This document shows, piece by piece, positions 3,806 to 59,857 of a stretch of DNA of 64,000 nucleotides (positions within the stretch are counted from its first letter, which is position 1; each line of letters starts with the position of its first letter). The notes below the pieces were generated by a model. The model was given only the letters and a program-made list of their open reading frames with translations. It was not told where the DNA came from and did no database searches. Both the position numbers and the translations under genes were made by a program. The stretch covers positions 7,793 through 71,792 of the forward strand of contig JBBRRY010000017.1 in the NCBI GenBank assembly GCA_038245905.1, given 5' to 3'. The DNA is from Thermoanaerobaculia bacterium. Lineage in GTDB: Bacteria; Acidobacteriota; Thermoanaerobaculia; UBA5066.

Positions 3806-4291
3806 ATGACGATGAAGATCCAGGCCATGCTCGACTGGTCTCCCGAGGAGAAGGCGGCGAAGGCGAAGGAGTGGGCCCAGTCCCTCTTCACGCTCCGTCT
3901 CCAGAAGGCCACGGGACAGCTCGAAAATCCGATGAAGATCAAGGAGCTTCGAAAAGACATCGCTCGCCTCAAGACCGCGCAGCACATGGGCGCCGTCGAG
4001 ACGGCGGCGGCGGCGGCTCACGAAGTTGCGCCCCATTCGGAGGGGACCGAAGAGAAGAGCTCTGCGAATGTGAAGAGCGCGGTGGGAACGGCGAAGCACA
4101 AGGGCCACGCGGTCGCGTCCGGCAAGGGCGCGAAGAAGCGCGCTGCGGCTGCGAAGGCGACACACAAGAAGGCGGCCGGCGCCCCTGCGAAGGCTCATTC
4201 ACCTTCTAAGAAATCTTCATCTCCGAAAGGCAAGCCCGCTGCTGCCTCGAAGAGCAAGTCCGCCCCCGCGAAGAAAAGCAAAAAGAAGTAG
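3806..4291 (+). CDS. rpmC: 50S ribosomal protein L29 with ~95 aa lysine/alanine-rich histone-H1-like tail
   Basis: L29 core in first ~65 aa; KA-rich extension contains AT-rich element at 4203-4224. Confidence 0.85.
4198..4226 (+). repeat. AT-rich element, 16S-tail-like orientation (CACCTTCTAAGAAATCTTCATCTCC), in-frame in rpmC tail
   Basis: exact core TTCTAAGAA. Confidence 0.7.
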
Positions 4292-12969: not shown

Positions 12970-12976
12970 GAGGCGC

Positions 12977-13013
12977 CCCTCTTACCTTCTAAGAATTCTT
13001 CGGAATTCTTCGT
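12977..13013 (+). repeat. AT-rich element (CCCCTCTTACCTTCTAAGAATTCTTCGGAATTCTTCG), intergenic rpsK-rpsD
   Basis: exact core TTCTAAGAA plus tandem GAATTCTTCG. Confidence 0.7.
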
Positions 13014-15410: not shown

Positions 15411-15460
15411 GAAAGATAGAGAAGAGACTCGGATACGGATTTTCTTAAAAGGTTAAGAGG
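15411..15460 (-). repeat. AT-rich element, SD-like orientation (AGAGAAGAGA...GATTTTCTTAAAAGGTTAAGAGGGG), abutting the rplQ terminator
   Basis: variant core TTCTTAAAA. Confidence 0.6.
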
Positions 15461-15486
15461 GGCCCCGGTTCGCCGGGGCCTTTTTT
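15461..15486. terminator. bidirectional rho-independent terminator (GGCCCCGG-TTCG-CCGGGGCC + T6; A-run on the other side)
   Basis: perfect 8-bp GC stem, 4-nt loop, T tract; lies between convergent rplQ and response-regulator gene. Confidence 0.8.
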
Positions 15487-15500
15487 CATGAGGGGGGCTT

Positions 15501-20201: not shown

Positions 20202-21683
20202 GTGACTCTTCGCCTTTACAACACCATGAGCCGCTCGCTCGAGGAGTTTCGTCCCGTCTACCCGGGAAAGATCGGCCTCTACACATGCGGACCCACCGTC
20301 TACAACCGGGTGCACATCGGAAACCTCAGGACATTCGTCTGGGAAGACGTGATGTGCCGCGTCTTTCGCGCCCTCGGCTACGAGACGACCCAGGTGATGA
20401 ACCTCACGGACATCGACGACAAGACGATCCGGGGCGCGTTGGCCGCCGGGCTGCCGCTGCGCGCGTTCACGGACCTTCACATCGCGACGTTCTTCGAGGA
20501 CCTGAAGACGCTCGGCGTCGAGCCGGCGGCGCTCTATCCGCGCGCCACGGAGCACATCCCCGAGATGGTCACGATCGTCCAGAAGCTCGCCGCCCGTGGG
20601 CACACGTACGAGAGCGACGGATCGGTCTGGTTCCGGATCTCGACGTTCCCGGGCTACGGAAGTCTCTCTAAGATCGACCTCACGGCCGTGAAGCGCGGCG
20701 CGCGCGTGGCCGACGACGAGTACGAGAAGGAAGATGTGCGCGACTTCGCGGTATGGAAGGGAGCGAAGGAGGGCGAGCCCGAGTCCGCGACGTGGGCCAC
20801 GGCGCTTGGCCGCGGGCGGCCCGGCTGGCACCTCGAGTGCAGCGCCATGGCGATGAAGTACCTCGGCGAAACGCTCGACATCCACACGGGCGCCGTCGAC
20901 AACATCTTCCCGCATCACGAGAACGAGATCGCGCAGAGCGAAGGCGCGACCGGGAAACCGTTCGTCCATTACTGGCTCCACGCCGAGCACCTCCTCGTGG
21001 ACGGCGAGAAGATGTCGAAGAGCAAGGGGAACTTCTACACGCTTCCCGACCTCCTCGAGAGGGGCTTCTCTCCGCGCGCGATCCGCTACCTCCTCATCTC
21101 GGTCCCGTATCGGATGAAGCTCAACTTCACCTTCGACGGCCTGAAGGCCGCGACCTCCGCGGTCGAGCGGCTGGAGTCGCTCGACCTGCGGCTCAGGGAA
21201 AGAGAGAAAGAGAAGAACAGTTCTTTGAAAGGGGAAGAGGGGGGGAGAGAGGGATTCGAGGGGCGACTGGCGGAGGCGCGGCGTGCGGTCTTTGCCGCCC
21301 TCGAGGACGACCTCAACACGGCCGGCGCTCTCGGGGCGCTGTTCTCGTTCGTCAAGGCGACCAACGTCGATCTCGAGGCGGGCCATCTGTCGGCCTCCGA
21401 CGCAACCGCGGCGCGCGGTCTTCTCCATGAAGTCGCCGGGAACGTCTTCGGAGTCATTGAAAAGACCGCAGGCGACGATGCGCCCTCTTCACCTTCTCAG
21501 AAATCTTCATCCGAATCCCCCGAATCCGATGATGCGTGGATCCTGGAGCGCATCGAGGCCCGAAAGGGGGCTAGAAAGGCCCGGGATTTCAAGGCCGCCG
21601 ACGCGATCCGCGACGAGCTCCTGGGCAAGGGAGTCATCCTCGAAGACACGCCCCAGGGCGTTCGCTGGAAGAGGAAGCCTTGA
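20202..21683 (+). CDS. cysS: cysteinyl-tRNA synthetase
   Basis: HIGN and KMSKS class-I motifs; carries two AT-rich elements (21196-21256, 21483-21520) in the C-terminal domain. Confidence 0.9.
   Translation: MTLRLYNTMSRSLEEFRPVYPGKIGLYTCGPTVYNRVHIGNLRTFVWEDVMCRVFRALGYETTQVMNLTDIDDKTIRGALAAGLPLRAFTDLHIATFFEDLKTLGVEPAALYPRATEHIPEMVTIVQKLAARGHTYESDGSVWFRISTFPGYGSLSKIDLTAVKRGARVADDEYEKEDVRDFAVWKGAKEGEPESATWATALGRGRPGWHLECSAMAMKYLGETLDIHTGAVDNIFPHHENEIAQSEGATGKPFVHYWLHAEHLLVDGEKMSKSKGNFYTLPDLLERGFSPRAIRYLLISVPYRMKLNFTFDGLKAATSAVERLESLDLRLREREKEKNSSLKGEEGGREGFEGRLAEARRAVFAALEDDLNTAGALGALFSFVKATNVDLEAGHLSASDATAARGLLHEVAGNVFGVIEKTAGDDAPSSPSQKSSSESPESDDAWILERIEARKGARKARDFKAADAIRDELLGKGVILEDTPQGVRWKRKP
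21196..21256 (-). repeat. element, SD-like orientation (GAGAGAAAGAGAAGAACAGTTCTTTGAAAGGGGAAGAGGGGGGGAGAGAGGG), in cysS
   Basis: variant core TTCTTTGAA. Confidence 0.6.
21483..21520 (+). repeat. element, 16S-tail-like orientation (CCCTCTTCACCTTCTCAGAAATCTTCATCC), in cysS
   Basis: variant core TTCTCAGAA. Confidence 0.65.
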
Positions 21684-21760: not shown

Positions 21761-21832
21761 GTCGGCTGCGCCTCGCGCCGCCGGCCCATAGAGGTTCGGA
21801 GGCACGCGGGTTTTCCAACAAGGTCACCCCAA

Positions 21833-21861
21833 CCCCTCCGGATCGGAGGGGTTTTCGTTTT
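21833..21861 (+). terminator. attenuator or terminator hairpin CCCCTCCG-GAT-CGGAGGGG followed by TTTTCGTTTT, overlapping the TTG start of aroDE
   Basis: 8-bp GC stem + U tract; upstream segment 21796-21803 (TTCGGAGG) could pair with the 5' arm as anti-terminator. Confidence 0.6.
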
Positions 21862-23422
21862 GGTCCTCACCGCGGAGAAAACACTTCTCGTCGCGTCCCT
21901 CGCACCGGCTTCTAACGCCGAGGCTCTGGGGGGGCGCGCGGCTCTCGCCGACCTGCCTCCGTCGACGGCTGTCGAGCTGCGCCTGGATGCGATGACCGAG
22001 GCGCCTGCGTTCGGCGCGCTGCGCGCGTGCTTCGAAGGCAGAACGCTCATCGCAACCGTTCGATCCAAAGCCGAGGGCGGCGGGTTCCGGGGGAGCGAGG
22101 AGGAAGAGCGGGATTTCCTAGAAGGTGCCCTCTCTGCGGGCTTCGATCTCGCAGACGTTGAATTTCGCCGCGACCTTGGTACTCGCTTCGCCGGAATACC
22201 TCCTTCTAAGAAGATTTCTTCTCTCCACGACCCCGAAGGGGTACCAGCCGACCTCGACAGCGTCGTCTCGAGGATGCTCGCTTCCCCCTCGCGCTTCGTG
22301 AAAGTCGCGGCGACGGCAAACGATTCCGGCGACGCCCGCCGCCTTCTCGAGCTTCAGGCCGCGAACCCAGGGGGGCGCCTCACCGTATTCGGCATGGGCG
22401 AGGCCGGGATCGCCACGCGCGTCCTCTCGCCCTATCTCGGCGCGGCGCTCGCGTACGGGGCGCTCGTCCCCGGGCGCGCCACGGCACCCGGCCAGCTTCT
22501 TGCGCGCGACCTCAACGAGATCTACGGCGTCGGCTGCGCGCGGAGCGTCTCGCGGCTCTTCGGGATCCTGGGCGGCGTCGTCTCGCACTCCCTCTCTCCC
22601 GCTCTCCACAACGCGAATTTCGAGGCTCTCGAAGAGGACGCGCTCTACGTCCCGTTTGCGATGCGGATGCTCGGGAGGGAGCTCGAGCCCCTCGTCGCCT
22701 CCCTCGACGCGCTCGGCCTTCCTCTCGGGGGCGTCTCGGTGACGATCCCGTTCAAGGAAGAGGCCGCGCTCCTTTCGGGCGCGGCCGAGGGCGGCGAGAG
22801 GGCGGTCAACACGCTCCTGAGGTCGAGCGCCCCGGGCCTGCCGCTCCAGTGGCGCGCGGAAAACACCGACCGTGCGGCATTCGAGGCCGTGATTGAAGAT
22901 GCTTCCGAGAGAGGGAGAACCGAGACGAGCGCGAATGCGCGGGTGGCGATCGTCCTCGGGGCTGGTGGTACGGCACGGGTTGCCGTGGATGTTCTCCGAA
23001 AAAGGGGATTCGGAGTCTTTCTGGTGAACCGAGGCGAGGAGCGTGGCGAGGCGCTTGCGGCTGCCACGGGCGCCCATTACCTTTCTAATAAATCCTCGGC
23101 GCCGTGGCCCGAGGCTGGAGTCATCGTCAACGCGACGGCCCTCGGGCTTCTCCCGGGGGATCCTCTTCCCTGCGAGCAAAATATTCTCCGCCCCGGGATG
23201 CTCGTGATCGACGCGCCGTATCGCGCCGGCGGAACAGAGCTCGTCCGGGCGGCGCGCGCAGCGGGCGCGCGCGTCGTAGACGGCCAGACACTGCTCCTGC
23301 TTCAGGCCGCGGGCCAGGCAACGCTCTTCACCGGGCGGCAGACGAGCCCGCGGGATCTGCTCTCGCGTCTCGCGCCGCGCCTTCGCTCCCTGTTTTCGTC
23401 CTTCGAGGAGTTTTCTCCTTGA
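21860..23422 (+). CDS. aroDE: bifunctional 3-dehydroquinate dehydratase (type I) / shikimate 5-dehydrogenase
   Basis: N-terminal AroD-like and C-terminal AroE-like (NTD, GAGGTARV) halves; TTG start; elements at 22098, 22197, 23077. Confidence 0.8.
   Translation: MVLTAEKTLLVASLAPASNAEALGGRAALADLPPSTAVELRLDAMTEAPAFGALRACFEGRTLIATVRSKAEGGGFRGSEEEERDFLEGALSAGFDLADVEFRRDLGTRFAGIPPSKKISSLHDPEGVPADLDSVVSRMLASPSRFVKVAATANDSGDARRLLELQAANPGGRLTVFGMGEAGIATRVLSPYLGAALAYGALVPGRATAPGQLLARDLNEIYGVGCARSVSRLFGILGGVVSHSLSPALHNANFEALEEDALYVPFAMRMLGRELEPLVASLDALGLPLGGVSVTIPFKEEAALLSGAAEGGERAVNTLLRSSAPGLPLQWRAENTDRAAFEAVIEDASERGRTETSANARVAIVLGAGGTARVAVDVLRKRGFGVFLVNRGEERGEALAAATGAHYLSNKSSAPWPEAGVIVNATALGLLPGDPLPCEQNILRPGMLVIDAPYRAGGTELVRAARAAGARVVDGQTLLLLQAAGQATLFTGRQTSPRDLLSRLAPRLRSLFSSFEEFSP
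22098..22134 (-). repeat. element, SD-like orientation (GAGGAGGAAGAGCGGGATTTCCTAGAAGGTGCCCTCTC), in aroDE
   Basis: variant core TTCCTAGAA. Confidence 0.55.
22197..22227 (+). repeat. element, 16S-tail-like orientation (ACCTCCTTCTAAGAAGATTTCTTCTCTCC), in aroDE
   Basis: exact core; 14/15 match to CCTCCTTTCTAAGGA. Confidence 0.7.
23077..23098 (+). repeat. element (TTACCTTTCTAATAAATCCTC), in aroDE
   Basis: variant core TTCTAATAA. Confidence 0.5.
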
Positions 23423-25050: not shown

Positions 25051-26357
25051 TGAAGATCGTCGACGCGGATACGCTTGCGGGCAAGAAGGAGCTGGAGCGG
25101 TTGCTAAAGAGCCGCCGGGGAGCCGCTCCTGACTTCGCGACGCTGAAGCAGGTCCTGCCGATCGTGGAGGATGTTCTGCGAAGAGGGGAGCCTGCGCTCC
25201 GGAAATACGTGAAGTGCTTCGACCCGTTGCGCGGCGCCCCTTCTTACCCTTCTAAGAAGCTCTTGATCACTCCCCGACGTGAGGAGTCTTCTCGGGTGGA
25301 TCCGGCGTTTCAGGCGGCGTTTGTCTTCGCCCGCAAGCGCATCGAGGCTTATCACCGCAAGCAGCTCTCGTCCGTCTCGCCGGGTTTCTCCTTCAAGGAC
25401 TCTCTCGGCGTCTCCTTCGTGGAGAGGCCCACGCCGTTCGATTCGGTGGGCGTCTATGTGCCCGGGGGCCGCGCCTTCTATCCGTCCTCGCTTCTCATGG
25501 GGGTCGTGCCCGCGCGCGTCGCGGGCGTCAGGCGAGTCGTCGTCGCGACGCCGCGCGGGGCGTGGGCGTCGAGCCCCGAGCTCCGGTGGGCGGCGGCCGA
25601 GCTGGGAGTCGACGAGGTGCTCCTCGCGGGAGGGGCCCACGGTATCGCCGGCCTCGTGTCCGTCGCGGGCGTCGCGAAGATCGTCGGCCCCGGGAACCGG
25701 TTCGTCGCGGCGGCGAAGCACCTCGTCTCGGGCCTCGTGGCGGTGGACATGCCGGCAGGGCCTTCGGAAGTCGCAATCCTCGCGTCGGCCGATGCGGACC
25801 CGGCGCTCGTGGCGGCGGATCTTCTCGCGCAAGCGGAGCACGATCCCGACGCAAAGTGCTTGCTGTTTACGAGCTCGAGAAGGCTGGCGGACGCCGTTCG
25901 ATGCGCGGCGCTCTCGCAGATGGATGCCTTCGAAGAGGATTCTTCTTTGATGGTGATGAGAGCGGCCTTGCGCCGCGGTGGGCGGATCTTTCTATTCAAA
26001 GAAATCTCCCGCGCCGCGTCGGCCTGCGCTGCCGTGTTCGCGGAGCACGTTCAGGTCATGGGCCGGTCTGTCGAGCGCTCGGCGGGTTCTCTCTTTCCCG
26101 CTGCCGGAACCTTGTTCATTGGCCCGTCGACGCCGACCGCGCTCGGGGACTACGTCCTCGGCCCGAATCACGTACTGCCCACAGGCGGTGCCGCGCGCAG
26201 CTTCTCGGGTCTCTCGGTGCGCGACTTCCTGCGCTGGGGGCGATCGGTCTCGGCCCCCGTGAAGGCGGCCCGCCGCCTCGCGCCCGCGGCAGCGGTCCTG
26301 GCGCGATTCGAAGGTCTCGTCGCCCACGCGAGCGCGCTCGACCGGAGAGTCCGGTGA
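25047..26357 (+). CDS. hisD: histidinol dehydrogenase
   Basis: 436 aa HisD; ATGA overlap; AT-rich elements at 25238, 25927, 25986. Confidence 0.88.
   Translation: MMKIVDADTLAGKKELERLLKSRRGAAPDFATLKQVLPIVEDVLRRGEPALRKYVKCFDPLRGAPSYPSKKLLITPRREESSRVDPAFQAAFVFARKRIEAYHRKQLSSVSPGFSFKDSLGVSFVERPTPFDSVGVYVPGGRAFYPSSLLMGVVPARVAGVRRVVVATPRGAWASSPELRWAAAELGVDEVLLAGGAHGIAGLVSVAGVAKIVGPGNRFVAAAKHLVSGLVAVDMPAGPSEVAILASADADPALVAADLLAQAEHDPDAKCLLFTSSRRLADAVRCAALSQMDAFEEDSSLMVMRAALRRGGRIFLFKEISRAASACAAVFAEHVQVMGRSVERSAGSLFPAAGTLFIGPSTPTALGDYVLGPNHVLPTGGAARSFSGLSVRDFLRWGRSVSAPVKAARRLAPAAAVLARFEGLVAHASALDRRVR
25238..25277 (+). repeat. element (CCCCTTCTTACCCTTCTAAGAAGCTCTTGATCACTCC), in hisD
   Basis: exact core. 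Confidence 0.7.
25927..25960. repeat. degenerate element (CCTTCGAAGAGGATTCTTCTTTGATGG), in hisD
   Basis: TTCGAAGAG variant; orientation ambiguous. Confidence 0.4.
25986..26010 (+). repeat. degenerate element (ATCTTTCTATTCAAAGAAATCTCCC), in hisD
   Basis: TTCAAAGAA variant. Confidence 0.45.
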
Positions 26358-28640: not shown

Positions 28641-29422
28641 ACGGCGGCCGGCTTGCGCTGTGGCCCGCGATCGACCTCATGGGCGGCCGCGTGGTCCGGC
28701 TGCTCAGGGGCAAGCGCGAGGCCGTGACGTTCTACGACGAGCAGCCTTCCGAGGCCGCGAGGCGATTTGCGGCGGAAGGCGCCGACGGCATCCACGTGGT
28801 GGATCTCGATGCGGCATTCGGAACGGGGGACAACGAAAGCAATCGGAAAGAGATTGAAGAAATACTTTCTGTTTCGGAGGCTTCCGGGGTGGCAGTGCAA
28901 GTCGGGGGAGGGCTGCGCGCCACCGCGGCCGTCGAAGATTTCTTAGAAGGGGTGAGTACCGCTAGGGCAGTTGTCGGCAGCCTGCCGTTCCTCGACCGCC
29001 CCGCGTTCACACACCTTCTAAGAAAATCTTCCTCTTCCGTCTCGGCCCGCATCGTGGTGGCCCTCGATTGCAAGGATGGCCGTCCGACCGTCCGCGGCTG
29101 GACCGAGGACGCGGGAGCGGGTGACGCCGTGTCCGTGGCACGCGAGATGTGGGGCCTCGGCGTCCGGGCGCTCCTCGTCACGGACGTCGCGTGCGACGGG
29201 GCCATGACGGGCCCGAATCTCGAACTCCTCGCCGGAGTGCGCGCCGTCTTTCCGGGCGAGATCCTGGCGTCCGGCGGCATGCGAGGAGAACGGGATCTCG
29301 ATCCGGTCGACCGCACGCTCGCGGGTGGGCCCCGCGGCGCCATCTTCGGCCGCGCATTGCACGGCGGAGTCACCACCATGGCGAAGCTCAAGGCGGCGCG
29401 CGACCTCGGGAGGCCTTCATGA
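28637..29422 (+). CDS. hisA: phosphoribosylformimino-5-aminoimidazole carboxamide ribotide isomerase
   Basis: HisA fold (AIDLMGG...VQVGGGLR); contains complementary element pair at 28935-28960 / 29012-29039. Confidence 0.88.
28935..28960 (-). repeat. element, SD-like orientation (GATTTCTTAGAAGGGGTGAGTACC), in hisA
   Basis: exact core TTCTTAGAA; near-complement of 29012-29039. Confidence 0.7.
29012..29039 (+). repeat. element, 16S-tail-like orientation (CACACCTTCTAAGAAAATCTTCCTCTTCC), in hisA
   Basis: exact core. Confidence 0.7.
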
Positions 29423-30852: not shown

Positions 30853-32225
30853 GGAATCTCCACCGCCTCGTCGTGGTCGAGAGGCCGGCGGACCTTACGA
30901 CGCCCGTTGCGCTCATGAAGGGCCTTCTTGCCGGCGAGGGGCCGTGCTTCCTTCTCGAATCGGTCGAGGGGGGCGACCGCGTGGCGCGGTGGTCCTTCCT
31001 CGGGGCGTCGCCCTCGGGAGAGATCTCCGGCCAGGATACGGATCCGTTCGCCGCCCTCCGCGCGCTGCCTCGCGGCGAAATGGCGGCAGGCGGGGACGAC
31101 CTCCCTCCCTTCACGGGCGGAGCCGTCGGTTACGCGGGCTACGACGCCGTGAGGCGCCTCGAACGCCTCCCCGAAACGAACCCGGACCCGATCGGGCTGC
31201 CGGACGCGTGGTTCGGGATCTTCGACGCGGTCATCGCGTTCGACCATGTGCGGCACCGCCTTCTCTTCGTGACGCATGCCGAAGAGGGCCGGGAGGAAGA
31301 GGCGCGCGCTCGTCTGCACGCGCTCGAGGCGCGCACCCTCACCCGAGGTGGTGAAACGCGCACAGAGACTCTCTCTTCTCTTACCTTCAAAGAATCTTCT
31401 CCTCGTTCCTCCTACATCGCGGCGGTCGAGCGCGCGAAGGAGCACATTCGGGCGGGCGACGTGTTTCAGGTCGTCCTCTCGCGCCGCTGGTCCGCACCCT
31501 TCGACGGCGACGCCTTCGCTGTCTACCGCGCGCTCCGGTCCATCAGCCCGTCGCCGTACCAGTACTTCCTGAGGACGCCGCACGGCGCGATCTTCGGAGC
31601 CTCGCCCGAGCGACTCGTGCGCGTCGCGGCGGCCCTCGGCGGCGCGGCCGTGGAGACGATTCCTCTCGCCGGCACCCGCGCGCGCGGCGCGACGCGCGAA
31701 GAGGACCTCGCCCTCGAGAAGGAGCTCCTCGCGGACCCGAAGGAGCGCGCGGAGCACGTGATGCTCGTGGATCTCGGGAGAAACGACCTCGGCCGAGTCG
31801 CGAAGGCCGGGAGCGTGCGCGTGGAAGATTTTTTCCGCGTCGAGCGCTATTCCCACGTGATGCACATCGCCTCGCGCGTGACCGGCGTTCTCGCCGAGGG
31901 GAAGGACGCCGTCGACGCTCTCGTGGCGACGTTTCCGGCCGGGACGCTTACGGGAGCGCCGAAAATACGCGCGATGGAGATCATCGAGGACCTCGAGCCG
32001 GTGCGGCGCGGCGCCTACGGCGGCACCGTGGGCTACCTCGACTTCGCCGGAAACCTCGACGTGGCTATCGCGATCCGCACGGCGGTCGTCGCGAACGGCA
32101 TTCTCCACGTGCAGGCCGGCGCCGGCATCGTCGCCGACTCCGACCCCGAGGCCGAAGCGACCGAGTGCGAGAACAAGGCCCGTGCTCTCATGGGCGCCGT
32201 TGCGAAGGCGGGGACGTACCGATGA
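30849..32225 (+). CDS. trpE: anthranilate synthase component I
   Basis: 458 aa TrpE; GTGA overlap; AT-rich element at 31366-31414. Confidence 0.88.
31366..31414 (+). repeat. element (CTCTCTTCTCTTACCTTCAAAGAATCTTCTCCTCGTTCCTCC), in trpE
   Basis: variant core TTCAAAGAA. Confidence 0.6.
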
Positions 32226-33828: not shown

Positions 33829-33878
33829 GAGGAGTAAGAGGGAGAGAAATTTCTTAGAAAGGGTAAGAGGAAGAGGGG
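33826..33878 (-). repeat. element, SD-like orientation (GGAGTAAGAGGGAGAGAAATTTCTTAGAAAGGGTAAGAGGAAGAGGGG), intergenic trpD-trpC, doubling as trpC RBS
   Basis: exact core; most complete copy. Confidence 0.75.
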
Positions 33879-35390
33879 ATGGGCGGATCGATTCTTGGGG
33901 AGATTCTCGCCGCCAAGCGGCGCCGGATCGCCCGTGGGGAGTTCACGGCCGAGACGGGCGCGCGCGCACGCACCAGCGGGGGTAGGGGCGCGCAGCCCGC
34001 GGCGCGGCCCGACGGCGCGCGCTTCGCCGCGGCCCTTAGGTCTCACCCTTCTCTTTCTTCCTCCTCCATTTCTAAGCAAGTCTTTCCTCTTCCTCTCCTT
34101 CTTTCCGAGATCAAGCACCGCTCCCCGAGCGCGGGCCTGATTCTTCCCGACGCGTCCTCGCGAATCGAGTCCCTCGCGCGCGCCTATCGGCGCGGCGGGG
34201 CGTCGGTCCTCTCCGTCGTCGTCGAGCAGGACTTCTTCGGCGGCGATCCGTCATGGCTGCCCCGCGCGAAGGCTGCGTCCGGGCTGCCCGTCCTGATGAA
34301 GGACTTCATCGTGGACGAGGCACAGCTGGACTTCGCCGCGGCCCTCGGCGCCGACGCGGTGCTCCTCCTCGTGTCTGCCCTCGAGGACGAGGGGCTTTCG
34401 CGCCTCCATGCGGCCGCGCGCTCCCGCGGTCTCGCGGTCCTCGTGGAGGCGCACGACGAGGCCGAGACCCGGCGGGCGCTGGATGTGGGCGCGGAGGTTG
34501 TCGGCGTGAACGCGCGGGATCTCGAGACGTTCGCCGTCGACCTGCCTGGAATGGCCCGCCTCGGTTCGCTCCTGCCGACGTCAGTCGTCCGCGTGGCCGA
34601 GAGCGGCATCAGGACCCGAGCGGACATCGAGGCTCTCTCCATGGCGGGCTATGGGGCTTTTCTCGTCGGTGAGACGCTCCTCCGCGCGTCCGACCCGGCG
34701 CGCGCCCTGCGCGAGCTCAAGGGCGAGAACGCGACCGAGATCAAGATCTGCGGCGTCACCCGGGAAGAAGACGTCGACGCGTGCCTGGAGTTCGGCGTGG
34801 ACTGGATCGGGCTCATCTTCGCGGAGCGCTCGCCGCGGAAATTGACGCCAGAGAGAGGAAGAATTCTTCGAATGAGGGCAATGGGGGAGCGCGGTGCGCG
34901 ACGAGAGGAAGGCGGGGCTGCGGGCGCCGTCAAGGGTGTGGTGGTTGTCTTCGACGGGGGCGACGAGGAAGAGATTCTTCGAGTCATTGAACTCGTTCGT
35001 CCGGACGTCGTTCAAATGCCAGATCCCCCTCTTACCCTTCAAAAGAAATTCTCTTCTTTCTCTTTTCTTTCGCTGTGGAACACCCTTCGTGTCGGGAGAG
35101 ATGACTTGTCGAGTGCGAATGAGCGGCGCGGCGCCGCTCTCCACTTCGATACGTCGGTGGCCGGGGCGAGCGGTGGCACCGGCAAGACATTCGACTGGAC
35201 TCTTCTGGACGCCGTCGATCGATCGCGCCCGCTGATTCTCGCGGGCGGCCTGAATCCCGGAAACGTGGCGGACGCCGTCAGAAGAGTGAAGCCGGACGTC
35301 GTGGACGTGGCGTCGGGAGTGGAGTCCGCGCCCGGAATCAAGGATCGGGCGAAAATCGCCGCATTCGTGAGGGAGGTCCGTGGTGCCTGA
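33879..35390 (+). CDS. trpCF: bifunctional indole-3-glycerol-phosphate synthase / phosphoribosylanthranilate isomerase
   Basis: IGPS half ([10 protein letters not shown]..) and PRAI half (KICGVT...GGTG..FDW); four AT-rich elements inside. Confidence 0.85.
34035..34110 (+). repeat. extended polypyrimidine element (CCTTCTCTTTCTTCCTCCTCCATTTCTAAGCAAGTCTTTCCTCTTCCTCTCCTTCTTTCC), in trpC
   Basis: variant core TTCTAAGCA, long CT tract. Confidence 0.6.
34849..34888 (-). repeat. element (AGAGAGGAAGAATTCTTCGAATGAGGGCAATGGGGGAG), in trpF half
   Basis: GAATTCTTCGAA variant (cf. 12991-13012). Confidence 0.5.
34964..34998 (-). repeat. element (GAGGAAGAGATTCTTCGAGTCATTGAACTCG), in trpF half
   Basis: variant. 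Confidence 0.45.
35024..35073 (+). repeat. element (CCCCTCTTACCCTTCAAAAGAAATTCTCTTCTTTCTCTTTTCTTTCG), in trpF half
   Basis: variant core TTCAAAAGAA. Confidence 0.6.
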
Positions 35391-45777: not shown

Positions 45778-46669
45778 CGCGCGACGTTCGGAACAGCGCA
45801 ATCTGCGTTTTCGTTCCCTTGGCTCTATACATTGCCGTATCGGCATTCTTGAAGAGAACGTCCGCCGTTCTTCCATCGGCGGGATAGACGGCAATGCCGA
45901 TACTGGCTCTTATCGAAAGCGTGGTCCCCTTCAACTCGCAGGCTTCGGCGATCCGAGACTGCATCTTCTGTGCAAGCCGCGTCACCACGGCGTCCTGCTT
46001 GACCTCGAGCAACAGACAGACGAATTCGTCGCCTCCCCAGCGACTGACCATGTCTTCCGCGCGGACGGAAGACCGTAAACGGTTCGCCACCATCAACAGC
46101 ACCTGGTCTCCCAGATCATGGCCATGAGAGTCGTTGATTTTCTTGAAGTCATCGATATCGATGAACAGGACCGCGAGCTTCCAGCCGTGCCGTTTTGCCT
46201 GGATCAACCCATGGTCGAGGCGCTGCTCGAATGACACGCGGTTCGGAAGGCCGGTGAGCGCGTCCTGAAGCGCGAGTTGTTGCGCTTCTTCCTCCTTGAG
46301 CTGGGATTTCGACAGATCGTCCCGCACGTCGGCCAGGTCGGTCTTCGTGTCCGCGAGCTCGGATTCGATGACGATTCGCTCAGCGACTTCTCTGGCGAGC
46401 TGGGCGTTGACCAGCTTCAAATCGTCCGCGGCTTTCGCTACCTTGTGTTCGACATCCTCGTTCTCGGCGAGAAGATGTTTGATGGTCTGAACAGGGACGT
46501 TGTCCTGCCGGAGGATTTCATTAACCGATGTGAGTTCAGTGGCCGCCTCCTTGACGGTGTCCTTGATCTTCTCGTTCTTCTTGAGCACGCCTCCAAGCGA
46601 AGCTCTCCTGGCGGACGCGTGTGGTTTCAGCCCTTTTGATCTTGACTTCATCACGAGCTCTCCATGCAC
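45764..46669 (-). CDS. GGDEF diguanylate cyclase with N-terminal coiled-coil; compositionally atypical (lower GC)
   Basis: GGDEF motif (RWGGDEF), D-box; GC visibly lower than flanks. Confidence 0.8.
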   Translation of the reverse strand: MHGELVMKSRSKGLKPHASARRASLGGVLKKNEKIKDTVKEAATELTSVNEILRQDNVPVQTIKHLLAENEDVEHKVAKAADDLKLVNAQLAREVAERIVIESELADTKTDLADVRDDLSKSQLKEEEAQQLALQDALTGLPNRVSFEQRLDHGLIQAKRHGWKLAVLFIDIDDFKKINDSHGHDLGDQVLLMVANRLRSSVRAEDMVSRWGGDEFVCLLLEVKQDAVVTRLAQKMQSRIAEACELKGTTLSIRASIGIAVYPADGRTADVLFKNADTAMYRAKGTKTQIALFRTSRASRI

Positions 46670-48917: not shown

Positions 48918-49551
48918 GGGTGTGGAGGATAGCGTGCCCTCTCGCCGACCGCTCCCCGCCACCTTTTTCCGCCGCGACACCGAGGTCATCGCGCGTGATC
49001 TCCTGGGCTGCCGGCTCACGCGGCGGCTGCCCGACGGCACCACGCGATCCGTGATCCTGGTCGAAACGGAGGCCTATCTCGGCGTGAAGGACCGCGCGGC
49101 GCACACGTGGAACGGCCGTCGTACCGCCCGCGTCGAGCCGATGTGGGGGGCGGGCGGCCACGCGTACGTCTATTTCGTCTACGGGATGCACTTCTGCATG
49201 AACGTCGTAGCGGGCGAAGAAGGGATTCCGGAGGCGGTCTTGCTGAGAGCGGGGATTCCGGAGGGAGAAGAGAAGGTTTCTTTGAAGGTGAATAGGGGAG
49301 GGGAGGCGTCCGGGCCCGCGAAGCTGTGCGCCTATCTGGGCGTGACCACCGCGCTGTCCGGCGCCTCGCTCTCCGGCCCCGAGCTGGTCCTCTCGCGCGG
49401 GCCGCGTCGGCGGTTCTCGATCGTCGCCGGGCCGCGCGTGGGCGTGGACTACGCGGGGGAGGCCGCGGCGTGGCCGCTGCGCTTCGCGATGGCCGGGTGC
49501 AAGGCCGTGACGAAGCCCAAGGGGCTCCGTCCTTTCCGTGTCATCGCATGA
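48916..49551 (+). CDS. mpg: DNA-3-methyladenine glycosylase (Mpg/AAG family)
   Basis: AAG-family motifs (ETEAY, GPAKLC); contains element at 49213-49306. Confidence 0.78.
   Translation: MGVEDSVPSRRPLPATFFRRDTEVIARDLLGCRLTRRLPDGTTRSVILVETEAYLGVKDRAAHTWNGRRTARVEPMWGAGGHAYVYFVYGMHFCMNVVAGEEGIPEAVLLRAGIPEGEEKVSLKVNRGGEASGPAKLCAYLGVTTALSGASLSGPELVLSRGPRRRFSIVAGPRVGVDYAGEAAAWPLRFAMAGCKAVTKPKGLRPFRVIA
49213..49306 (-). repeat. element with internal direct repeat GGGATTCCGGAGG x2 then GGAGAAGAGAAGGTTTCTTTGAAGGTGAATAGGGGAGGGGAG, in mpg
   Basis: variant core TTCTTTGAA. Confidence 0.55.
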
Positions 49552-50385: not shown

Positions 50386-52101
50386 TTACAGGGTCTTGAG
50401 ATCGGCGAGCGCCGAGGCGGTCACGAGGCAGTTCTTTCCGCTGCGCTTCGCCTGATAGAGGGCCTGGTCGGCGCGCTCGACGAGGAGGCGCTTCGTGCCC
50501 GCGTCCTCCGGGAAGCACGAAAGGCCGAGCGAAATCGTCACGCCGAGAGCGTGATCGAGATTCGGTGCGACGAAGAGGCGTCCGGCCACGCGATTGCGGA
50601 GGCGGTCGGCGACGACCCAGGCCTTCGCAGGCGTCGTTTCGGGAAAGATGAGCGCGAATTCCTCTCCGCCGTACCGGGCGACCGTGTCCATCTCACGCAC
50701 GCCCTTGGTCAGCTCCTCGACGAGCCCGCGCAGCACGAGGTCTCCGACGGGGTGTCCCCAGCGATCGTTGATCTTCTTGAAGTCGTCGATGTCGAGCATG
50801 ACGAGGGCGAGCGGCTGACCGCTCCGCTCGTGGCGGGCGAGCTCGCGGGCAAGCGTCTCCTGGAAGTAACGGTGGTTGAACGCCTCGGTCAGAGAGTCGC
50901 GCACCGACATCTGCCGGGTCGTCTCGTAGGCGCGCGCCGACTGGATCGCCGTCACGGCCTGATTCGAGAATATTTCGAGGGCCTGGACGTCCTCGAGTCG
51001 CGGCACGAGTCCGCTCCGCGGCTGGTCGACCTGAAGGACCCCGACGAGCAGGTCGCCGGCGGTGAGCGGAACGAAGAGAAGATCGTTCGGGTGCCAGGCG
51101 CCCACGGCCGTGCTGCGCCGGCGGCGCTCGATGCGGCCGGAGTCGTCGACGAGCGTGCCCACGTCCTTGCGATCGAGGTGGCTCACGAAGTACGACTTCG
51201 AGATCCGGTAGCGTTCGCCGAACCATCGCGCGATCTCCTCGCGCGCAAGTTTTCGGGGCGGTGCCCCTTGCGCCGTGTCGTCGATCCCTACCTGCGCGCG
51301 GCGTTCGAAGACGTTCTCCGCGGGGTCGAATAGGGAGAGCACGACGACCCGGTAGCCGAGGCTGTGATGGACTGCCTGCACGATGCTTTGCACGAGGTGC
51401 TCGAGGGTCAGGTGCGACTTCAGCTCGTTCGAGACTTCGAGGATGCGCTGGAGCATCTCGGCGCGCCCCTGGAGGCGCTCGTTCACGGCCTGCATCTGCC
51501 GCCTGAGGTTTCGGTCCTGAAGGGCGAGGGCCACGTGATCCGACACGACCGAGAGTTCCTGCAAGGTCTGCGGTGTCACGAGCGACGGGTCGTCCGATTC
51601 CGCGATCAGGACGCCCGCGATCAAGGCCGGAGTCTGGAGCGGCAGGAACACCTGATGGGAGAAACGCGGGTTGAGGACGAGATCGCGGTCGGGACCGCTT
51701 GCGACGCGCGGCGTGGGCGAGGCCGGAAGGAACGGTGACTCGAGATCCTTCTGCGAGGCGAGCCAGTCGAGGAACGGCCGCCGCTCGAGAGTCACGTCGC
51801 CGCCGAACGACACGAGCGCCTGGCCATCCGGGTCCTCTTCGTAGGACACGGCCGCGAGGGCGCGGATGGGGAGCGCCTGGCGGAGCGCGTCGAAGAGTCG
51901 CGCGAAGATCTCTTCTCCGGCCGCGACACTCGAGACGATGGCGGTGAGCTCGCGGAGCGTCGCAAGCTCGCGGTTCTTGCGGGACAGCTCGGTGGTGCCG
52001 GAACGGGCCTGCGCGAGCTTTCGGGTGACGACGACGACCGTGACGAGGAGTCCCAGCGCGACGGACGCGATCAGGGCGGGCGGGAGATCGAGGCTCCACA
52101 T
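50386..52101 (-). CDS. membrane-anchored GAF-GAF-GGDEF diguanylate cyclase
   Basis: N-terminal TM helix, two GAF-like regions, GGEEF motif with upstream DIDDFKKIND. Confidence 0.8.
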   Translation of the reverse strand: MWSLDLPPALIASVALGLLVTVVVVTRKLAQARSGTTELSRKNRELATLRELTAIVSSVAAGEEIFARLFDALRQALPIRALAAVSYEEDPDGQALVSFGGDVTLERRPFLDWLASQKDLESPFLPASPTPRVASGPDRDLVLNPRFSHQVFLPLQTPALIAGVLIAESDDPSLVTPQTLQELSVVSDHVALALQDRNLRRQMQAVNERLQGRAEMLQRILEVSNELKSHLTLEHLVQSIVQAVHHSLGYRVVVLSLFDPAENVFERRAQVGIDDTAQGAPPRKLAREEIARWFGERYRISKSYFVSHLDRKDVGTLVDDSGRIERRRRSTAVGAWHPNDLLFVPLTAGDLLVGVLQVDQPRSGLVPRLEDVQALEIFSNQAVTAIQSARAYETTRQMSVRDSLTEAFNHRYFQETLARELARHERSGQPLALVMLDIDDFKKINDRWGHPVGDLVLRGLVEELTKGVREMDTVARYGGEEFALIFPETTPAKAWVVADRLRNRVAGRLFVAPNLDHALGVTISLGLSCFPEDAGTKRLLVERADQALYQAKRSGKNCLVTASALADLKTL

Positions 52102-58392: not shown

Positions 58393-58477
58393 TGGAGGCA
58401 GTGTACCGCCGGCGCGGTACAATAAGACTTGTTAGCGCCTGCCGCTCAAGCGCCGACCGGGTTCCGGCTCGCCTTCC

Positions 58478-59857
58478 ATGAAACAACCAGCTTCTCTCCC
58501 GTCCGTCGGCATCGTGTCGCTCGGATGCCCCAAGAACCTCGTCGACACCGAGGTGATGCTCGGCCATCTCCAGCGCGAGGGCATGACGCTGGCCGACCCC
58601 GAGAAATCGCGCGTCGTCATCGTGAACACCTGCGGCTTCATCGACGCGGCCAAGGAGGAGTCCGTCGGCGCAATCCTCCGCGAGGTGGCGCGCAAGGAAG
58701 CCGGGGAGATCGACCGCGTCGTCGTCGCCGGCTGCATGGTGCAGAAGTACGGCCGGGAGCTCGCGGCCGAGATCCCCGAGGTGGACCACTTCATCGGCCT
58801 CGACGAGCTGGAGAAGGCGCCCGCGGCGGCCCTCGGCCTCCCGTCGCTCCCGCGTTTCAGCGACAAACCCCTCGCGACCCGGCTCTACGACGACCTCTCT
58901 CCGCGCGTCCTCACACACCGTAAGGGCTACGCCTATCTGAAGGTCGCCGAGGGCTGCAACAACCCATGCACGTTCTGCACGATTCCGCAGATGCGCGGCC
59001 TCATGCGCTCGCGCACGATCGCGTCGCTCGTGAAAGAAGCGCAGAGCCTCGAGGCGCAGGGCGTCCGGGAGCTCGTCCTGATCTCGCAGGACACGACCCG
59101 CTACGGCGAGGACCTCGGACTCGGCCGGACGGGCCTCGCCGATCTCGTGAAGGCGCTTCTTGCCGAGACGGGCTTCCCCTGGGTGCGCTTCCTGTACGCC
59201 TACCCGAAGACGCTCCACCGGGGCGTCTTCCAGCTCATGGCGAGAGAGCCGCGTTTCGTCCCGTACGTCGACATGCCGCTCCAGCATGTCTCCCGGAAGA
59301 TCCTCACGAAGATGAAGAGGGGAGGCGACGGCGCGAGCTATCTGAAGCAATTCGAAGAAATCCGAAAACTCGTCCCCGAGATTTCCCTCCGCTCGACCTT
59401 CATCGTGGGCTTCCCGGGCGAAGAGGAGAAGGATTTCATAGAAGTGGAAGAGTTTCTCAAGGCCGTCCGCTTCGACAACGCGGGAGTCTTCACGTACTCC
59501 CCCGAACCGGGATCCGGTGCGGAATCGCTCGGGGACCCTCTTCCACTCGAAGAAAAATCTTCACGCCGCGACCGTTTGATGGAGGTCCAGCAGAAGATCT
59601 CTCTATCGAAGAACCGCGCGAAGCGCGGCAAGATCTTCGACGCCCTGCTCGAAGGCCCCAGCGAGGAAACGGAGATGCTCCTCGAGGCGCGCCTCGCCGG
59701 GCAGGCCCCCGAGATCGACGGGCGCGTGCTGATCAACGACGTCCCCTCCGGCTGGGCGCCGCGCGTCGGCGAGATCGTGCGTGTGAAGATCACCGAGGCG
59801 CACGCCTACGACCTCGTCGGGCGGGTCGTAGCGCCCGTCGCTTCCACCGTCGCTTAA
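58478..59857 (+). CDS. rimO: ribosomal protein S12 methylthiotransferase RimO (radical SAM, MiaB-like)
   Basis: N-terminal 3-Cys, CxxxCxxC radical SAM, TRAM. Confidence 0.88.
   Translation: MKQPASLPSVGIVSLGCPKNLVDTEVMLGHLQREGMTLADPEKSRVVIVNTCGFIDAAKEESVGAILREVARKEAGEIDRVVVAGCMVQKYGRELAAEIPEVDHFIGLDELEKAPAAALGLPSLPRFSDKPLATRLYDDLSPRVLTHRKGYAYLKVAEGCNNPCTFCTIPQMRGLMRSRTIASLVKEAQSLEAQGVRELVLISQDTTRYGEDLGLGRTGLADLVKALLAETGFPWVRFLYAYPKTLHRGVFQLMAREPRFVPYVDMPLQHVSRKILTKMKRGGDGASYLKQFEEIRKLVPEISLRSTFIVGFPGEEEKDFIEVEEFLKAVRFDNAGVFTYSPEPGSGAESLGDPLPLEEKSSRRDRLMEVQQKISLSKNRAKRGKIFDALLEGPSEETEMLLEARLAGQAPEIDGRVLINDVPSGWAPRVGEIVRVKITEAHAYDLVGRVVAPVASTVA
59419..59458 (-). repeat. element (GAGGAGAAGGATTTCATAGAAGTGGAAGAGTTTCTC), in rimO
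   Basis: variant core TTCATAGAA; uses rare ATA/GAA/TTT codons at natively conserved EEDF..FL residues. Confidence 0.45.
59518..59560 (+). repeat. element (CCCTCTTCCACTCGAAGAAAAATCTTCACG), in rimO
   Basis: variant core TCGAAGAAA. Confidence 0.5.

Follow-up and report, generated by a model that had tools for sequence, protein, structure and literature searches.

We analysed 64,000 nucleotides from the genome of a Thermoanaerobaculia bacterium (contig JBBRRY010000017.1, positions 7,793–71,792 of the forward strand; hereafter the window), in which short A+T-rich sequences recur in opposite orientations inside hisA and several other genes. These sequences, referred to here as arms, are members of a dispersed, clade-wide repeat family of a Thermoanaerobaculia lineage and not private stems of five genes. 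An earlier note on this DNA had described oppositely oriented, near-perfectly complementary copies within hisA, aroDE, cysS, trpCF and rimO, and had read them as long mRNA stems that act as RNase III-type processing or translation-pausing sites. The presence of same-family copies in opposite orientation within genes was upheld by our analysis. This observation is real and understated, the mechanistic reading attached to it is unsupported, and the phenomenon is unusual.

The arm motif spans ~35 nt, is A+T-rich and strand-asymmetric, and is present in about 20 copies in the window according to a profile search. The consensus derived from 209 instances consists of a purine-rich tract, followed by WT-TTCTTAGAAGG and then by KGAARRRRGG, this last part being most simply written as KGAAGAGGGG. 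The G+C content of the window is 68%, and the motif is an A+T island within a G+C-rich genome. Exact matches to TTCTTAGAAGG occur six times, and at two or fewer mismatches we identified 25 matches against 5.15 expected, with a maximum of 11 in 100 shuffles. This enrichment, together with the hisA codon data described below, ruled out chance or codon usage as the source of the motif. It is also found in 25 relatives (loci L001–L019, L022–L024, L026, L028 and L029) at densities of 1.4–6.7 cores per 10 kb, whereas no cores were present in L021, L027, L030 or any non-acidobacterial locus. The nearest HisA proteins and loci are found in metagenome-assembled genomes of Thermoanaerobaculia and other Acidobacteriota, recovered from soil and peat. 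No high-G+C viral contigs with the motif were found, which argues against a phage link. At the outer edge of the arm the information content fades gradually, with neither a sharp end nor a target duplication. Literature searches on the motif, on Thermoanaerobaculia repeats and on MITEs (miniature inverted-repeat transposable elements) of Acidobacteria returned nothing relevant, and no account of the family was found in the searchable literature. A resemblance of the core to the CodY, Noc/parS and heat-shock-element boxes was considered, but their half-site spacing does not fit. An apparent likeness of the arms to the Shine–Dalgarno and anti-Shine–Dalgarno sequences was also noted.

The copies follow a pairing rule in which polarity is strict and spacing free. 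When the window was counted together with 29 syntenic loci of relatives, neighbouring copies within 400 nt were in the (+,-) order in 100 cases and in the (+,+) order in six, with no (-,+) or (-,-) neighbours. The purine-rich copy is therefore 5′ and the pyrimidine-rich copy 3′ in a convergent couple, and this (+,-) couple is identical on both strands, the purine-rich copy coming first on either. The couples resolve into eight or more orthologous sites within 14 kb, with spacings of 60–72, 80–96, 84, 96–103, 96–102, 142–243, 171–234 and 281–356 nt. Spacing is unconstrained (60–356 nt), and at one site it ranges from 142 to 243 nt while the arms persist, without helical phasing. The rule also extends beyond this genomic region: a metagenome scan with a 14-mer yielded 16 high-G+C contigs from other genomic regions, which contained ~11 further independent (+,-) pairs, including one nested set. 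These pairs are hosted by genes for a protein kinase, a cytochrome c assembly protein (Pfam Cytochrom_C_asm), an ABC ATPase, an alanine racemase and a DNA glycosylase, and in an amidohydrolase they lie around the start and the signal peptide.

The hisA pair was present as claimed. Its forward, purine-rich arm (28928–28967, + strand) was detected by nhmmer over native HisA residues and encodes VEDFLEGVS, and its reverse, pyrimidine-rich arm (29002–29038, - strand) adjoins a poly-Ser tract of variable length; together they make a duplex of 16 bp, interrupted by one bulge, at -19.1 kcal/mol. In the forward arm the codons GAT, TTC, TTA and GAA are fixed in 13–18 of 17–18 orthologues (TTA in 13 of 17, GAT in 17 of 18). 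In the reverse arm CTT is retained in 18 of 18, CTA and AGA each in 17 of 18 and AAA in 14 of 15. Rare A/T-ending codons stay within the arms while adjacent codons switch among G/C-ending synonyms, and codon entropy is 0.60 in the arms compared with 0.89 outside them (one-sided Mann–Whitney p = 0.027). The hisA arms are thus held at the nucleotide level, against genomic G+C pressure. The sister lineages L020, L021 and L025 retain the forward-arm peptide EDFLE with codons shifted towards G+C, and the true outgroups L027 and L030 carry AVEAALAAG or AVEALLAAG at this position. Most arm sites of the his–trp region are common to 6–20 of the 24 loci compared, the exceptions being four minor site clusters that each occur in 1–3 loci, and no insertion turnover at arm sites was detected across the 24 loci. 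The recurrence of the same pair sites in about 24 related genomes indicates that they are ancient.

Alignments with outgroups and PDB structures showed that, in hisA, aroD, cysS, the kinase and the ABC ATPase, what lies between the arms is the native coding sequence of the host gene. We read the inter-arm stretch of HisA as the β4 region of the barrel and that of the kinase as the αC/β4 region; the ABC ATPase interior lies between the G-x-I-x-l-d-G motif and the LSGGQ signature. The earlier view that these are not MITEs with foreign internal DNA is supported by these alignments, and a MITE with a shared interior was rejected because the interiors are either native gene or unrelated G+C-rich sequence. 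The arms themselves lie mainly over native residues, with net changes of +1 and +3–4 residues in hisA and of 0 and +1 residue in aroD; relative to the motif-free outgroup L030 they appear as small insertions in trpC (+15 residues) and cysS (~+16 residues). All six reading phases are occupied by arms. In forward phase 2 the central base is A in none of 52 arms and in reverse phase 1 it is T in none of 24, either of which would give a stop codon, whereas the canonical central base predominates in the other phases. This avoidance of stops in every phase indicates that the arms are translated and that the constraint acts on nucleic acid. A motif acting at the peptide level was rejected, since copies occur in all six phases and, in some cases, between genes.

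Of the other pairs that had been claimed, those in aroDE, cysS and trpD/trpC are present, and the rimO pair is present in a weak, decayed form. The aroD-domain pair comprises a forward arm at 22099–22138 (+; ERDFLEG, no indel relative to outgroups, site common to 9 loci) and a reverse arm at 22185–22227 (-; PPSKKISS, 15 loci). In cysS, the forward arm at 21208–21240 (+; NSSLKGEE) carries a central A to T change that avoids TAG, and the reverse arm at 21476–21520 (-; SPSQKSSS) lies inside the insertion relative to L030. The first pair assigned to trpCF does not lie within one gene: its forward arm (33838–33868, +) is located in the trpD–trpC spacer and provides the trpC ribosome-binding site, as a forward arm also does in L066 and L114, and its reverse arm (34049–34097, -) is the 15-residue insertion in the 5′ coding region of trpC. 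The left arm of the second trpCF pair had been placed at 34964–34998; the conserved arm supported by orthologues is instead at 34849–34874 (+), and it is paired with the reverse arm at 35025–35059 (-; 15 loci). The rimO forward arm (59416–59463, +) overlies the native EEDF motif and includes the rare codon ATA, and the decayed reverse arm (59518–59560, -) falls below the profile threshold. A single pair in aroE and two pairs in hisD had been overlooked because one arm of each is decayed in this genome. The aroE-domain forward arm (about 22990–23010, +) is decayed here and was located from its orthologous position, 99 nt upstream of the reverse arm at 23064–23105 (-; 11 loci). In hisD, pair 1 consists of a decayed forward arm recognised by orthologue comparison (about 25170–25192, +) and a reverse arm at 25231–25271 (-; YPSKKLL, 18 loci), and pair 2 of two weak arms, at 25934–25964 (+; 20 loci) and at 25995–26013 (-; identified by profile and orthologue comparison).

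Comparison of orthologues also revealed how arms arise and disappear. A lineage-specific arm in hisZ (L012, 5275–5316; the orthologous site was compared in L013, L017, L022 and L028) overlies native codons and converts GLLERLL to GLLRRVIE without an indel. At least eight changes are clustered in ~12 nt, and this cluster looks templated; no partner arm was detected near it. In the glycosylase genes of L121 and L277 we identified an uninterrupted insertion of a whole hairpin, whose interior of ~25 residues is non-native and which amounts to ~26 extra residues relative to PDB homologues. Orthologues of this linker (L121, 2046–2147; L274–L277) carry the full hairpin, either arm alone, back-to-back fused arms or neither arm, and the window itself has the forward-arm-only state; at the DNA level, the shorter forms look like deletion derivatives.

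Additional variation was observed around the hisA arms. Eight HisA orthologues (P0019, P0031, P0071, P0077–P0079, P0088 and P0110) contain a tandem second arm–interior–arm unit of 35–45 extra residues, whose interior is a diverged copy of the native β4 segment. The poly-Ser tract outside the reverse arm varies from 2 to ~25 residues among 120 orthologues; it is built of TCT/TCC repeats (window 29024–29045; same site in L001–L028), and the forward arm has no matching change. In L015 (10256–10501), which derives from a long-read metagenome-assembled genome, frameshifts break the hisA frame in the arm region and are probably sequencing errors caused by homopolymers or low complexity in the A+T-rich arms. 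No flipped inter-arm alleles were found in 22 aligned hisA loci or 120 HisA proteins, all from consensus assemblies, in which rare flips would escape detection.

The proposal that the arms are long mRNA stems serving RNase III or pausing was not borne out by folding. Compared with synonymous-codon shuffles the segments were no more stable, with z values of -1.44 for hisA (13 of 200 shuffles as good), +1.95 for aroDE, +2.01 for cysS, +1.5 for trpCF and +0.6 for rimO; the earlier note had itself named such an outcome as refuting its reading. Dinucleotide shuffles gave z values of -5.2 for hisA, -3.0 for trpD–trpC and +0.1 for aroDE, and the hisA segment folds into one long hairpin. When random segment pairs of equal size and spacing were used as the reference (-16.5 ± 5.2 kcal/mol), the hisA arm duplex was within their range, and the other arm duplexes fell between the 19th and 96th percentiles. 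The arms locally lower mRNA structure rather than raise it. Near-perfect complementarity, as had been claimed for all pairs, applies to hisA only; over all pairs the inner flank is ~50% paired and the base at the centre of the core is often mismatched. Each arm tracks the family consensus rather than its partner. The stem hypothesis lacks positive support, and the invariant pairs are uninformative either way. No promoter-like sites were found at the arms, and cruciform extrusion seems implausible at spacers of 50–280 nt.

Based on these observations, we tentatively propose that the arms constitute a lineage-specific, sequence-specifically maintained fold-back repeat family, with purine-first fold-back of the transcript as the mechanism; taken as a whole, this proposal is possible and somewhat short of probable, and its descriptive part commands much more of our confidence than the RNA step does. 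The arm sequence itself would be read by a trans-acting factor or process specific to the lineage. The unit recognised would be the fold-back of both arms within a single-stranded nucleic acid, for which the nascent transcript is the simplest candidate and in which the purine arm, made first on either strand, would capture the emerging pyrimidine-rich, G-poor and otherwise unstructured arm. Such an action would be akin to that of Correia or REP (repetitive extragenic palindromic) transcript hairpins and not to that of a generic RNase III stem, and forward arms would double as ribosome-binding sites at some gene starts. Loss of the reading factor would let the arms drift, as in L020, L021 and L025. 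The use of the same 13-mer everywhere disfavours a generic need for hairpins, and the overlaid native codons and native interiors disfavour a transposon. Free spacing and nesting favour single-strand fold-back over a protein-bridged DNA loop, and a polarity that is equal on both strands yet directional points to order of synthesis. A more specific version, in which a system keeps one sequence in coding DNA, appears quite improbable to us. It could take the form of templated short-patch replacement that would write and refresh the arms, for which the hisZ change cluster may be cited, or of a co-transcriptional clamp, purine arm first and pyrimidine arm second, read by a dedicated factor that would control Rho or RNase access or translation coupling in long biosynthetic operons.

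Several results weigh against the fold-back proposal. No trans-acting factor was identified. The segments gain no stability over synonymous-codon shuffles or random segment pairs, and stems inside genes would be melted by ribosomes during translation. In 55% of pairs the central core base is mismatched. There is no sense-strand excess of G·U pairs, with G·U-compatible mismatches numbering 192 and 173 on the two strands, and sense and antisense duplexes have similar energies (-32.5 versus -31.5 kcal/mol, p = 0.19). Covariation was likewise not detected: arms match their own partners no better than they match partners taken from other genomes, RNAalifold run with 22 hisA sequences gave -7.8 kcal/mol with a covariation term of -0.37, and the hisA alignment contains one double change in 18 pairs, most pairs being invariant. 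The codon-level constraint figures come from hisA only. Single arms, such as that in trpE, are conserved too, and arms are often deleted in the permissive glycosylase linker, so selection at each site may be weak.

The arms could instead be the terminal inverted repeats (TIRs) of selfish, in-frame, fold-back MITE relics that resemble Rickettsia palindromic elements and have no host function. Their TIR-like polarity fits such an origin, as do the contiguous hairpin with its non-native interior in the L121 and L277 glycosylase genes, the deletion derivatives among the orthologues of these genes, the tandem duplicate arm–interior–arm unit in some hisA orthologues and the in-frame position of the arms with stop avoidance. 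We nevertheless consider it unlikely, because the interiors are native in hisA, aroD, cysS, the kinase and the ABC ATPase, the arms overlie native residues with a net change of 0–4 residues, and the hisA synonymous sites are held; in addition, there is zero site turnover in 24 genomes, the new hisZ arm appeared without any indel, and the arms have neither a sharp end nor a target duplication. More doubtful still is the view that the arms are sites bound in pairs, as double-stranded DNA, by a nucleoid-associated protein, by a recombinase or by a transposase that has been domesticated. It would account for arms that are conserved to consensus independently of their partners, for the like behaviour of both strands and for the conservation of single arms, but the spacing (60–356 nt) is free and varies within a site without helical phasing, loops of 60–100 bp are stiff, the intragenic placement has no obvious reason, and no such protein is known.

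The reading of the arms as operon-specific long mRNA stems for RNase III processing or pausing gains from the single long hairpin of the hisA segment, from the rare codons of which the arms are made, and from the Neisseria Correia elements, which are bound and cut by RNase III (PMC2649163). Given that the segments are no more stable than synonymous-codon shuffles, that pairs occur outside this operon too and that no covariation was found, we regard it as very unlikely. An accumulation of DNA uptake sequences by transformation bias would explain an abundant, lineage-specific oligomer in both orientations, conserved at orthologous sites and fitted into codons by substitution, yet it is highly improbable in view of the strict convergent intragenic pairing and the very uneven density of the arms, and competence is unknown in the clade. 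This unevenness is pronounced, as 14 of the 23 profile matches in the window lie within 20–36 kb. Uptake sequences such as the Neisseria DUS and the Pasteurellaceae uptake signal sequence (USS) resemble the arms as lineage-specific, over-represented motifs that are fitted into coding sequence at conserved sites and are sometimes found as inverted pairs. They are evenly spread and mostly unpaired, and their pairs act as terminators outside genes, in contrast to the clustered and strictly paired copies described here.

Pfam scans upheld the names of the + strand genes cysS, aroD–aroE, hisZ–hisG, hisD, hisC, hisB, hisH, hisA, hisF–hisIE, trpE and trpC–trpF, and placed a RimO/MiaB-type gene at 58436–59857. 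The 16-kb aro–his–trp–cysS stretch contains ~9 pairs and one single arm, the remaining 48 kb only ~5 arms, and the eight minus-strand genes of the window none. The existence of a single 16-kb polycistronic mRNA, as had been assumed, is doubtful, because a strong terminator-like hairpin of 10 pairs followed by a T-rich tail (21831–21853) separates cysS from aroDE; cysS may therefore not share the aro–his–trp transcript. Single arms are found in trpE (31375–31410, -), where the arm lies in the inter-domain linker and is common to 11 loci with a partner in none, in an rpmC-like gene (4188–4224, -; SPSKKSSS, in a C-terminal extension), in the rpsK–rpsD spacer (12970–13009, -; profile match), after rplQ (15432–15471, +) and in the 3-methyladenine glycosylase gene (49264–49297, +; VSLKVN). 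The arm after rplQ adjoins a terminator hairpin: within 15432–15500 it continues into this G+C-rich structure (GGGGCCCCGG..CCGGGGCC, then a T run), and its inner GGGG flank is part of the terminator stem. The open reading frame at the rpmC (L29) position (3932–4291) encodes 119 residues with no Pfam match at E ≤ 1e-5, and its long Ala/Lys-rich C-terminal extension contains the reverse arm. An Rfam search of the full 64 kb returned no families at the gathering score, ribosomal-protein leaders upstream of the ribosomal-protein operon included. A relatively A+T-rich 48-nt direct repeat (46131–46178 and 50765–50812, 79% identical) is unrelated to the arm motif and is probably the trace of two paralogous genes.

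In kind, the family is best read as a relation of Rickettsia palindromic elements, Correia elements and REPINs, although it lacks defining features of each. As in Rickettsia, the repeats are palindromic, lie in frame within housekeeping genes, are translated and tolerated by the host protein, and are ancient and vertically inherited. The Rickettsia elements are contiguous insertions of 100–150 bp that are alike along their whole length (PMC1779305, PMC1166351), whereas here only two ~35-nt arms are common, mainly over native codons around a native interior, and synonymous sites are held; a contiguous insertion is the exception here, with the glycosylase gene as one example. Correia elements (Correia repeat enclosed elements, CREE) are mobile, lie mostly between genes, possess a defined core and a target duplication, and are bound by RNase III and IHF (PMC2649163, PMC2229807). 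The arms are like them in being co-transcribed, hairpin-capable inverted repeats that can create expression signals, here ribosome-binding sites; the mobility, defined core, target duplication and RNase III and IHF binding were not seen for the arms. With REPs and REPINs, which are associated with RAYT transposases, they share orientation-specific inverted doublets, long persistence in a lineage and decay where a maintaining factor was presumably lost. REPs are small extragenic palindromes with a GTAG or CGTC tag and a fixed doublet spacing (PMC3733652), unlike the arms, which are intragenic, freely spaced and not self-complementary. The only self-complementary stretch of the consensus, TTCT-T-AGAA, leaves a one-base loop and cannot fold, and neither tag is present.

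With respect to MITEs, terminal inverted repeats are present as convergent arms of 11–30 nt, and insertion polymorphism among relatives was not seen, only the glycosylase deletion derivatives. No transposase was found among the ~20 window proteins scanned by Pfam, a subset of the open reading frames of the window. Template-switch mutations can overwrite nearby native sequence with an inverted copy and leave its length unaltered (PMC8794818), but they account neither for one shared motif at hundreds of loci nor for its strict polarity, and no homogenisation of arms within a genome was seen. Homogenisation of partner arms by template switching was rejected, as the comparison of own and foreign partners gave no signal.

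The arms account for the odd low-complexity inserts (poly-Ser or Glu/Lys-rich) and the A+T islands in Thermoanaerobaculia genes, and they offer a concrete and testable way to approach a possible trans-acting factor in a group that is uncultured. If the constraint is real, a whole lineage of soil bacteria has retained one A+T-rich sequence, in hundreds of copies, inside essential enzymes, and proteins such as HisA, AroD, CysRS and protein kinases have changed shape to accommodate it over a divergence that otherwise saturates synonymous sites. In-frame palindromic repeats would then have a second, independent instance besides Rickettsia, with properties that are absent from the Rickettsia elements, namely native interiors, strict polarity and conservation at the nucleotide level.

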